Sequence record: PQ571291
DNA from: Escherichia phage EF3-1
Reading direction: 5' to 3' (one strand)
Length of the DNA: 50,066 nucleotides
How positions within the stretch are numbered: the first letter of the stretch is position 1; each line of letters opens with the position of its first letter. A program made the translations under genes and the position numbers. Positions 37,409-37,696 of this stretch are shown one piece after another. The notes beneath the pieces were generated by a model. The model searched no databases and had not been told where the DNA came from. It was given only the letters and a program-made list of their open reading frames with translations.

Positions 37409-37696
37409 ATGAGCAAGAGTCATAAGTTAAAAATCAACCCGGTACATTTCATCGGAGTAATGAACGGAACCAAAACGGCAGAGTTCCGCGTCAATGACCG
37501 CAACTTCCAGGTTGGTGATATCCTGGAGCTACGAGAGTTCGATCGCGGTGAGTTTACCGGGTGGGAATTTCACGCCAGGGTATCCGATGTTACAGATGTG
37601 ACGCCATACATTGATCGCGGGTATGACGATCAAGGGTGCGACTTCACGCAATACGTGATGTTATCAATCAAGCCTTACAGGAAGGTTAGACCATGA
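37409..37696 (+). CDS. ASCH/PUA-like small protein candidate (95 aa)
   Basis: KLKINPVHFIGVMNGTKTAEFRVNDRNFQVGDILELRE resembles ASCH/DUF3850-type fold signature; motif-level only. Confidence 0.45.
   Translation: MSKSHKLKINPVHFIGVMNGTKTAEFRVNDRNFQVGDILELREFDRGEFTGWEFHARVSDVTDVTPYIDRGYDDQGCDFTQYVMLSIKPYRKVRP

Follow-up and report, generated by a model that had tools for sequence, protein, structure and literature searches.

A stand-alone DUF3850 protein of the ASCH/PUA-like fold encoded by a T1-like Escherichia phage

Introduction

What does a protein of 95 residues do for a coliphage, when its orthologues are labelled in RefSeq either 'RNA-binding protein' or 'DUF3850 domain-containing protein'? 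The gene that raises this question lies in Escherichia phage EF3-1 (sequence record PQ571291). We analysed a stretch of 50,066 nucleotides of this phage, called here the window, which is essentially a complete T1-like genome (Tunavirus). An earlier note, made from the letters of the sequence and a list of its open reading frames, had proposed a 95-aa protein with an N-terminal half resembling ASCH/PUA-like beta-barrels, which in a phage early region could act on host tRNA or mRNA or recognise modified nucleotides. We ask here whether the reading frame is a gene, whether the product has this fold, and what such a protein might bind or transform.

A gene of T1-like phages

Both the list of open reading frames and the raw sequence give a frame of 95 codons on the + strand that opens with ATG and ends with a TGA included in its range (Table 1). 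Searches with tblastn found a full-length orthologue (91-95 aa, 81-95% protein identity) in 61 phage records, all of them T1-like phages of E. coli or Shigella. They include gp21 of DELF2 (YP_009902333) and the copies of ISF002, IME18, ADB-2, JMPW1, Shfl1, SH2, the BASEL phage Bas13 and others, which occupy the same slot, differ from the EF3-1 protein by few amino-acid changes, and share with it the overlapping downstream partner and the upstream element described below. At the nucleotide level, 98% of a 4-kb segment around the gene aligns, at 89.5% identity, with Escherichia phage vB_EcoS-DELF2 (Drexlerviridae, Tunavirus); the segment also matches 257 other phage records. Among six of the orthologues most pairwise dN/dS ratios (Nei-Gojobori) lie in the range 0.10-0.25, a sign of purifying selection on the reading frame. 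Since the frame is kept at full length in 61 records and dN/dS is low in most of these pairs, it is a real gene and not a chance product of the sequence. Positions 37,409 to 37,696 are a genuine gene of a T1-like phage, and the 95-aa protein of the earlier note is borne out by the frame itself, by the GAGG that precedes it, and by its orthologues and their dN/dS.

A chance frame, or the decaying remnant of a gene that has lost its function, would find some comfort in two observations. The copy of phage ISF001 is an outlier, in which K22 is replaced by isoleucine, many other non-synonymous replacements have accumulated, and dN/dS reaches 1.8 against DELF2; and phage T1 has no copy at all. The ISF001 sequence could reflect decay or a sequence error. 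Set against the 61 full-length records, the purifying selection seen in most pairs, a good ribosome-binding site and a strong profile match, this reading is extremely improbable. The gene is also better conserved than the one downstream of it, with 81-95% identity versus 45-93%.

It is thus an ordinary, correctly read accessory gene, with close orthologues already annotated in public records. The finding in itself matters little: the family is catalogued and the orthologues are labelled already. The interest that remains lies elsewhere: 1) DUF3850 abounds in phages, prophages and plasmids; 2) it has some ten polar residues that hardly vary; and 3) its ASCH cousins have newly been reported as N4-acetylcytidine deacetylases. 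Functional work on DUF3850 could conveniently be done in a T1-like coliphage, such as the relative in the BASEL collection, which has the gene.

Table 1. Positions in the window of the DUF3850 gene and of the features around it.
Feature	Position	Strand	Evidence or remark
Conserved 20-mer ATAGCACGAATTGCTAAACC of the repeated promoter-like element	37327..37346	+	Partial palindrome TAGCA-N5-TGCTA inside
Hairpin AAGGCCATT / AGTGGCCTT enclosing the -10-like TATAGT at 37365-37370	37353..37376	+	Folding versus shuffles
GAGG, Shine-Dalgarno-like, 4 nt before the DUF3850 ATG	37401..37404	+	Direct sequence reading
DUF3850 CDS, 95-aa single-domain protein, ASCH/PUA-like beta-barrel	37409..37696	+	ORF, profile, structure, orthologue and dN/dS evidence
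Codons of the ASCH octapeptide G20-T-K22-T-A-E25-F-R27 (GxKxxExR, 'GKER'), then N29-D30-R31	37466..37489	+	Profile alignment, conservation
Codons of residues 66-81, acidic loop insertion before the last barrel strand	37604..37651	+	Gapped in most aligned members
Downstream gene, 218-aa protein	37693..38349	+	ATG overlaps the DUF3850 stop (ATGA)
Terminator-like hairpin, then T run	38358..38381	+	Consensus scan: 10-bp stem, then TATTTTTATG
HAD_PNKP phosphatase	39313-39924
P-loop kinase-like protein	40033-40605

A small ASCH/PUA-like domain that fills the protein

The assignment of the protein to the DUF3850 family and to the ASCH/PUA-like fold is practically certain. It matches Pfam DUF3850 (PF12961) at 57.1 bits, for a gathering cut-off of 22.9 (E 2.2e-15), with residues 5-72 aligned on profile positions 2-72 of 77, and PHROG 986, named 'RNA-binding protein', at E 1.6e-36. 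The Pfam ASCH model (PF04266) matches residues 17-53 just under its threshold (18.4 bits versus 21.2, E 0.0035). All 62 of the aligned family members match DUF3850, and 53 of them also match Pfam ASCH at E <=0.01, the best at 4e-11. A search of NCBIfam with the 95-aa protein retrieved no family.

The sole significant sequence match among solved structures is PDB 3IUW (E 2.6e-9; E 1.3e-27 when the family profile is used). This is an Enterococcus faecalis V583 protein (NP_814290), from a bacterium or its prophage, which was deposited by structural genomics as an 'activating signal cointegrator' and is itself a DUF3850 protein. It shares the family and the fold, 37-38% identity and all signature residues with the protein of EF3-1, but is only 83 aa long and lacks the 16-residue insertion at positions 66-81.

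We built an AlphaFold2 model on the alignment of the DUF3850 family (mean pLDDT 88.7, pTM 0.78). It runs through a strand, a helix and four more strands, the fourth of these being long (residues 48-63). Foldseek comparison with the PDB ranked 3IUW first (E 2e-8; TM 0.74 on the query and 0.88-0.89 on the target), ahead of PH0355, ZmASCH and YqfB (E 1.5e-3 to 2e-2). PF0470 and TTHA0113 gave weaker matches (E 0.04-0.1), in a set that extends from PF0470 to TRIP4, includes EOLA1 and spans E 0.04-0.8; EVE/YTH proteins score in the same weak range. When the model was compared with viral structure models, the top matches were phage DUF3850/ASCH proteins. The ASCH/PUA-like identity proposed in the earlier note therefore stands: profile and structure searches, the refuting test that it had named, returned the DUF3850, PHROG 986, 3IUW and fold matches, and nothing in them refutes it.

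The same results correct its extent. The note had placed the domain in the N-terminal half, whereas the Pfam alignment runs from residue 5 to residue 72 and the final strand of the model (residues 82-93, YVMLSIK...) is the conserved terminal 'YVxLS' strand of the family. The domain extends over the entire protein. Shorter members of the alignment lack residues 66-81, an inserted block that is modelled at a pLDDT of about 60. Standing alone as here, DUF3850 represents the ASCH/PUA-like beta-barrel in its smallest version. Ten longer proteins that contain DUF3850 were scanned with Pfam, and none showed a second domain.

A nearly invariant polar site in a non-basic protein

To count residues per column, 269 DUF3850 relatives were aligned to the HMM of the first alignment. 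The protein has the full family signature, H-x-L-K...G-x-K-x-x-E-x-R-x-N-D-R-x-[FY]-x-x-G-D-x-L-x-L-x-E...[YFW]-V-x-L-S, with positions kept in 232 to 269 of the 269 sequences. K8, E25 and R27 are found in every one of them; K22 and R31 are kept in 268, H5, F/Y14 and D30 in 267, D37 in 265, T/S50 and G51 in 262, E43 in 260, Y/F/W82 in 247, N29 in 239 and G20 in 232. This conservation exceeds the polar invariance that a fold alone needs.

The ASCH literature defines a conserved octapeptide, GxKxx[E/T/S]xR, located behind the first helix, and the protein has it as G20-T-K22-T-A-E25-F-R27. This octapeptide can be placed in register with that of E. coli YqfB by aligning the family profile with the PDB sequences: K22 corresponds to K21, E25 to T24 and R27 to R26. 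Pairwise BLAST against an approximate YqfB sequence gave no significant match. Because E25 stands at the position of Thr24 in YqfB, the protein belongs to the glutamate ('GKER') type of ASCH octapeptide and not to the threonine type of YqfB.

With a pI of 6.8 and a net charge of about 0, the protein is not basic, and neither is the family, for which the median pI is 6.8 as well and 19 of 62 members lie under 6. This near-neutral charge is more in keeping with a specific pocket than with general electrostatic binding of RNA. It also weighs on the comparison with ZmASCH of Zymomonas, which binds nucleic acids and weakly cleaves single-stranded RNA in vitro, using a continuous positive cleft with Tyr47, Lys53 and Ser128 (PMC5615036). 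A DUF3850 protein acting in this manner would be a Mg-dependent nuclease of single-stranded RNA that degrades host or phage transcripts. ZmASCH chains are indeed among the best fold matches outside DUF3850 (E about 2e-3, TM 0.63-0.68 on the query), and the invariant acidic residues D30, D37 and E43, together with a histidine, could hold a metal. Yet the DUF3850 protein is neutral, whereas ZmASCH relies on its positive cleft, is about 50 residues shorter than ZmASCH, lacks the region of Ser128, and was found in no RNA-related gene context; with the weakness of the ZmASCH activity itself, these differences make such a nuclease distinctly unlikely.

A candidate base pocket

About ten near-invariant polar residues in a core of 75, a conserved Lys/Glu pair and a family that is not basic favour a specific pocket for a base or nucleotide, which would probably be catalytic. 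The best explanation that we can offer, and we offer it tentatively, by analogy with other ASCH proteins of the GKER type, is that DUF3850 is an accessory base-pocket protein, possibly an N4-acylcytosine amidohydrolase. The conserved residues would line the ASCH cleft, which in turn would hold a single base or nucleotide. The ligand would most likely be a base of the cytosine type, which might be free or might be flipped out from a nucleic acid. That the conserved cleft binds a base, a nucleotide or a nucleic acid of some kind is likely. During infection such a protein would have an accessory part in the handling of nucleic acids or nucleotides, in the non-structural (early/middle) phase.

The analogy comes from recent work on the cousins of the family. 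In a 2026 preprint on ASCH proteins with either threonine or glutamate in the octapeptide, 19 of 19 proteins tested are reported to have removed N4-acetylcytidine (ac4C) from E. coli tRNA in vitro, and TthASCH, EOLA1 and TRIP4 required both the Lys and the Glu of this motif; the 19 proteins include no phage or DUF3850 protein (bioRxiv 10.64898/2026.02.27.708502). According to the same work, which mentions 'ac4C34', bacterial ac4C is predominantly found in tRNA. YqfB is an N4-acetylcytidine amidohydrolase with the triad Lys21/Thr24/Glu74 (PMC9599836).

DUF3850 shares with the GKER-type proteins, i.e., TthASCH/TTHA0113 (2DP9), EOLA1 and the ASCH domain of TRIP4, a beta-barrel and the GxKxxExR motif, and the Lys and Glu of these deacetylases are present in it as K22 and E25. 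These proteins are larger, with 120-160 aa and extra helices, their sequence similarity to DUF3850 is marginal and their fold scores are weak (E 0.1-0.8); DUF3850, for its part, has the extra invariant residues H5, K8 and N-D-R. YqfB (1TE7, 9KYF), with 103 aa, is near in size and has the same fold and the same octapeptide register, but its triad is not complete in the phage protein: the lysine is present as K22, the threonine is replaced by E25, and the segment of Glu74 has no counterpart. A modified cytidine is, on these analogies, a plausible substrate. Hydrolysis of an N-acyl-cytosine amide would be the most concrete candidate for the chemistry, though we rate it as possible and no higher.

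A number of arguments stand against an amidohydrolase. First, DUF3850 lacks the C-terminal helical part of the longer ASCH proteins, which carries Glu74 of YqfB and presumably also Tyr81 of TthASCH, judging by its residue number alone. Second, the nucleophile of YqfB, Thr24, is a glutamate in this protein. Third, the Pfam ASCH model stays just below its threshold. Fourth, canonical ASCH proteins do not share the extra invariant H/K/D/R residues, which could mean a different substrate or a different chemistry. Fifth, the neighbourhoods of the family in 94 independent phage lineages are centred on DNA, with no recurrent RNA gene. Sixth, T1 does without DUF3850. To our knowledge, ac4C in the tRNA of E. 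coli is confined to C34 of elongator tRNA-Met, and we know of no benefit that a phage would draw from erasing it. A full-text literature search for 'DUF3850' found no functional or experimental study. The actions on host tRNA or mRNA, or the recognition of modified nucleotides, that the earlier note had suggested are, at this point, speculation.

A bolder version of the base-pocket reading would make DUF3850 a widespread 'eraser' or trap used by phages and plasmids, in which a minimal ASCH pocket with its Lys/Glu pair serves the mobile element by acting on a modified cytosine-type base or nucleotide. It could, e.g., remove the N4-acetyl group from C34 of the host elongator tRNA-Met, deacylate a modified DNA base, or capture a cytidine-based signalling nucleotide. 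This is a long shot. If true, it would be the smallest known nucleic-acid demodifying enzyme and would represent a new class of phage accessory function.

Genomic contexts of the family

The distribution of DUF3850 is very broad. HMMER was run exhaustively over 1.84 billion cluster representatives and retrieved 3714 clusters at E <=1e-3, counted at 50% identity. Homologues occur in 480 phage records, from phages of Escherichia, Salmonella, Klebsiella, Enterococcus, Listeria, Yersinia and others, and in 149 plasmid records, chiefly of Enterococcus and Listeria. In the loci that we sampled, the gene lies beside a helicase and a primase in one case and is flanked by an exonuclease gene and the P2 A replication gene in another; it was also found between tail genes of T7-like phages and in the replication module of a Listeria phage.

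For a systematic view of the neighbours, we scanned IMG/VR with a back-translated motif. This returned 120 loci, with a DUF3850 ORF called in 106 of them; at 80% identity these form 94 groups. Genes up to three positions away from DUF3850 were clustered, and the cluster representatives were annotated with Pfam. Four families recur at various positions: the P2 GPA replication protein (9 independent groups), DUF2732 (6), SSB (5) and VRR-NUC (5). ParA-type ATPases (8 groups) are mostly found directly upstream and Dam D12 methylases (6) mostly directly downstream, while a PemK toxin lies downstream (+1/+2) and a TraR zinc finger upstream (-2/-1) in 4 groups each. No neighbour is present in more than about a tenth of the 94 lineages, and none of the recurrent ones is an RNA-metabolism gene. 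Genomic context thus points to DNA-related modules (replication, partition, methylation), not to RNA, and the database label 'RNA-binding protein' is not supported by it.

Eleven fusion proteins of 421-538 aa were also found, with a ParB-like N-terminus that has a GERRW motif and a C-terminal DUF3850. Pfam detected no ParB domain in the representative that was searched. A survey of the ParB-CTPase fold describes such ParB-DUF3850 fusions as enriched in phages and prophages, able to bind CTP, and uniquely and consistently co-encoded with ParA (PNAS/bioRxiv, 10.1073/pnas.2527592122). The fusions carry the same domain with all signature residues, as the C-terminal module of a CTP-binding ParB-like protein of 420-540 aa beside ParA. 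In EF3-1, in contrast, the domain stands alone, and no ParA or ParB match is found among its neighbours. By analogy, the fusions suggest a role in DNA binding.

These contexts bring in an alternative to the catalytic pocket: a non-catalytic binder of nucleic acid, most likely of DNA, i.e., a small module that recognises DNA or modified bases in association with the machinery of replication, partition or methylation. It might be a reader of methylated or otherwise marked DNA that performs no chemistry. Replication, partition, methylase, SSB and VRR-NUC genes recur beside DUF3850 in independent lineages, the helicase/primase and P2 A/exonuclease loci have the same flavour, and the ParB-like fusions place the domain next to parA. 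Moreover, the fold matches include solved complexes of TRIP4 ASCH with double-stranded DNA, and a close relative of EF3-1 encodes DNA methyltransferases. On the other side, a pI close to neutral, as in this protein and its family, is unusual for DNA binding, the ten or so invariant polar residues, with a Lys and a Glu that are catalytic in other ASCH proteins, resemble an active site, and the context is weak, given that even the most frequent neighbour family occurs in at most about 10% of the lineages and that the ParB domain of the fusions escaped Pfam. We regard a non-catalytic DNA binder as possible. The truncation of the domain, its non-canonical invariant residues and its DNA-centred context make a reader of DNA or of modified bases nearly as likely as the amidohydrolase; the base pocket is kept as the preferred reading.

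The locus in EF3-1 and its downstream partner

In EF3-1 the gene belongs to a run of small + strand genes that extends from about 33.7 to 42.4 kb, up to the terminase genes; for most genes of the run no function is recognised. In some Tunavirus relatives the upstream element is separated from DUF3850 by an extra small gene, absent from EF3-1. The absence of DUF3850 from T1 and these insertions upstream of it in relatives mark it as an accessory gene in a variable slot. Expression early in infection is plausible from this context only; we found no data in the literature on the timing of transcription in T1-like phages.

The stop codon of the gene overlaps the start of the next one (ATGA at 37693-37696). 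In the 218-aa product of this second gene, a small beta domain occurs twice, and a disordered linker then leads to a transmembrane helix at the C-terminus, where the tail is hydrophobic (residues 200-218). Its internal repeat scores 71.5, for a shuffle mean of 27.9 (sd 5.6), and its AlphaFold2 model has a pLDDT of 71. Searches with this protein gave no informative Pfam, fold or defence match, the best fold match being ribosomal L6 at TM 0.16; a 17.7-bit PADLOC match to an HsdS-like model was disregarded as weak. The partner abuts DUF3850 in the T1-like records listed with the orthologue. As this clade is closely related, the linkage may be simply inherited. The two genes can also be found in different states: in phage 008 the partner is fragmented and DUF3850 intact, and in T1 a single-repeat, 124-aa version of the partner occupies the same slot and DUF3850 is absent. 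A terminator-like hairpin behind the partner, with a counterpart annotated as a terminator in SA12KD and T1, probably ends a two-gene unit.

An accessory gene in a variable slot may also serve counter-defence. The pocket would then sequester or destroy a nucleotide-type immune signal or a modified base, or would shield the phage from a modification-dependent host system. This fits a gene that is present in 61 Tunavirus records and absent from T1, in a slot where other small genes are gained and lost, as well as a family that is spread across unrelated phages and plasmids and whose member here is small, non-basic and pocket-bearing. But no PADLOC family matched the 95-aa protein at E <=0.1 (its models cover defence, not anti-defence systems), no adjoining anti-defence gene was recognised, and the full-text literature search gave no link between DUF3850 and defence. 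We consider counter-defence improbable, and return to the base pocket as the preferred reading of the protein.

A split polynucleotide kinase/phosphatase is encoded at a distance of two genes downstream (Table 1). A link with tRNA repair was considered and dropped: no ligase is annotated in the close relative, and the genes are preceded by separate copies of the upstream element and so are probably separate transcription units. Rfam at gathering thresholds and a tRNA scan found nothing in the whole window.

A repeated promoter-like element

The 80 bp upstream of the DUF3850 gene are a copy of a repeated unit with four parts: 1) a 20-mer of the form ATAGCAC-N4-TTG(C/T)TAAAA; 2) a G+C-rich hairpin with a stem that varies in sequence among copies and keeps its pairing; 3) a -10-like hexamer fixed at positions 39-44 of the element; and 4) often CATCGAAACGA, and a start codon 71-85 nt from the first base of the element in the 16 of 23 copies where one was detected. 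Nine copies were found at <=3 mismatches, for an expectation of 0.01, and 23 at <=5 mismatches; about 16 of these 23 face a downstream start codon, and 15 have a hairpin with a z-score below -2 against shuffles. In the copy that precedes DUF3850, the hairpin has a minimum free energy of -12.9 kcal/mol (z = -3.4 against shuffles).

The good copies fall into three regions, 19.9-25.5 kb (+), 29.1-33.3 kb (-) and 34.2-42.4 kb (+), where they precede the helicase, methylase and phosphatase genes and small non-structural genes; the element is confined to the non-structural gene blocks. The gap of 22 nt between TTGCTA and the -10-like hexamer is too long for a standard sigma-70 -35/-10 pair, and in phage SA12KD the equivalent hairpins are annotated as rho-independent terminators. 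The element might act as an activator-dependent promoter, its site centred near -42, or combine a terminator and a promoter in one coupled unit, or it might be something different. Conservation of its copy before the DUF3850 gene, over 69 nt upstream, is about 90% across 421 Drexlerviridae phage records.

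A promoter-like unit repeated across the non-structural gene blocks

A promoter-like unit occurs in about 23 copies in the window, within non-structural gene blocks (see table). It opens with a conserved 20-mer, ATAGCAC-N4-TTG(C/T)TAAAA, which contains a partial palindrome, continues with a G+C-rich hairpin whose stems covary from copy to copy, and then has a -10-like hexamer placed at a constant 22 nt after TTGCTA, a gap that exceeds the spacing of a standard -35/-10 pair. The hairpin scores z < -2 against shuffled sequences in 15 of the 23 copies, and a start codon was detected 71-85 nt from the element start for 16 of them. 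The copy upstream of the gene for the ASCH/PUA-like DUF3850 protein shows ~90% conservation across 421 Drexlerviridae records. The unit may be an activator-dependent promoter, a coupled terminator-promoter, or another kind of element. Its hairpins are annotated as terminators in a relative.

The unit also bears on the start of the gene matching PHROG 10642, whose longest ORF is probably over-extended at its 5' end: the ATG at 38741 falls inside the -10 box of the copy at 38709, and the PHROG alignment begins only at residue 15 of the product. The ATG at 38783, preceded by GAGG and spaced in agreement with the other copies of the unit, is the likely true start.

Features of the window and of related loci (the latter in their own numbering)
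Feature	Sequence	Position	Strand	Remark
Promoter-like unit, copy before DUF3850 gene	window	37327-37399		
Further unit copies (starts)	window	19952, 22462, 23485, 23817, 25473	+	
Further unit copies (starts)	window	34245, 34982, 36040, 36601, 38709, 39229, 40602, 42433	+	
Further unit copies (starts)	window	29121, 29621, 30136, 31669, 32133, 33311	-	
Degenerate unit copies	window	2997(-), 18410(+), 49157(-)		
218-aa tail-anchored membrane protein gene	window	37693-38349	+	overlaps DUF3850 stop codon
Longest ORF of this gene, probably over-extended	window	38741-39229	+	PHROG 10642 match
HAD_PNKP-type phosphatase, 203 aa	window	39313-39924	+	
P-loop kinase-like protein	window	40033-40605	+	PHROG 'dNMP kinase'
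Extra small gene	L006 (SA12KD)	3912-4118		
Extra small gene	L010 (SH2)	605-904		
Extra small gene	L011 (JMPW1)	711-917		
DUF3850 fusion	L013 (IMG/VR)	ORF L013_1		
DUF3850 fusion	L087 (IMG/VR)	ORF L087_10		

Neighbouring genes and the DUF3850 slot in relatives

The phosphatase and the kinase-like protein are apparently the two halves of a polynucleotide kinase/phosphatase split into separate genes, which in phage T1 have an HNH endonuclease between them. The phosphatase carries a Cys-rich C-terminal tail extending ~25 residues past its PHROG match, and the annotation of the close relative DELF2 includes no ligase.

The membrane protein encoded just downstream of DUF3850 is built from two repeated small beta domains; it gave no above-threshold Pfam match, nothing of note in PADLOC and no fold match in the PDB. 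Since T1 has in the same slot ST68, a 124-aa single-repeat form, the two-repeat architecture looks like a recent internal duplication. In Shigella phage 008 (L009 1185-1796) this partner gene is fragmented and DUF3850 intact, and in Shigella phage ISF001 (L008 901-1188) DUF3850 has Ile at the otherwise invariant Lys22 of the ASCH octapeptide, with a dN/dS of 1.8 versus DELF2; these cases reflect either decay in the two lineages or sequence errors in the records. In the close relatives SA12KD, SH2 and JMPW1, an extra gene of 68-99 aa separates the repeated upstream element from DUF3850, whereas the window and DELF2 lack it, which marks the slot as a hotspot of small-gene gain and loss.

DUF3850 fusion proteins

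DUF3850 is also found at the C-terminus of 11 proteins of 421-538 aa in IMG/VR loci, where it comes after a ParB-like N-terminal region bearing the motif GERRW and after a cysteine-rich stretch of the form CxxC...CxxC. The ParB part was not detected by Pfam at E up to 1e-3; a gene for a ParA-type ATPase often lies immediately upstream of the fusion gene in these loci.
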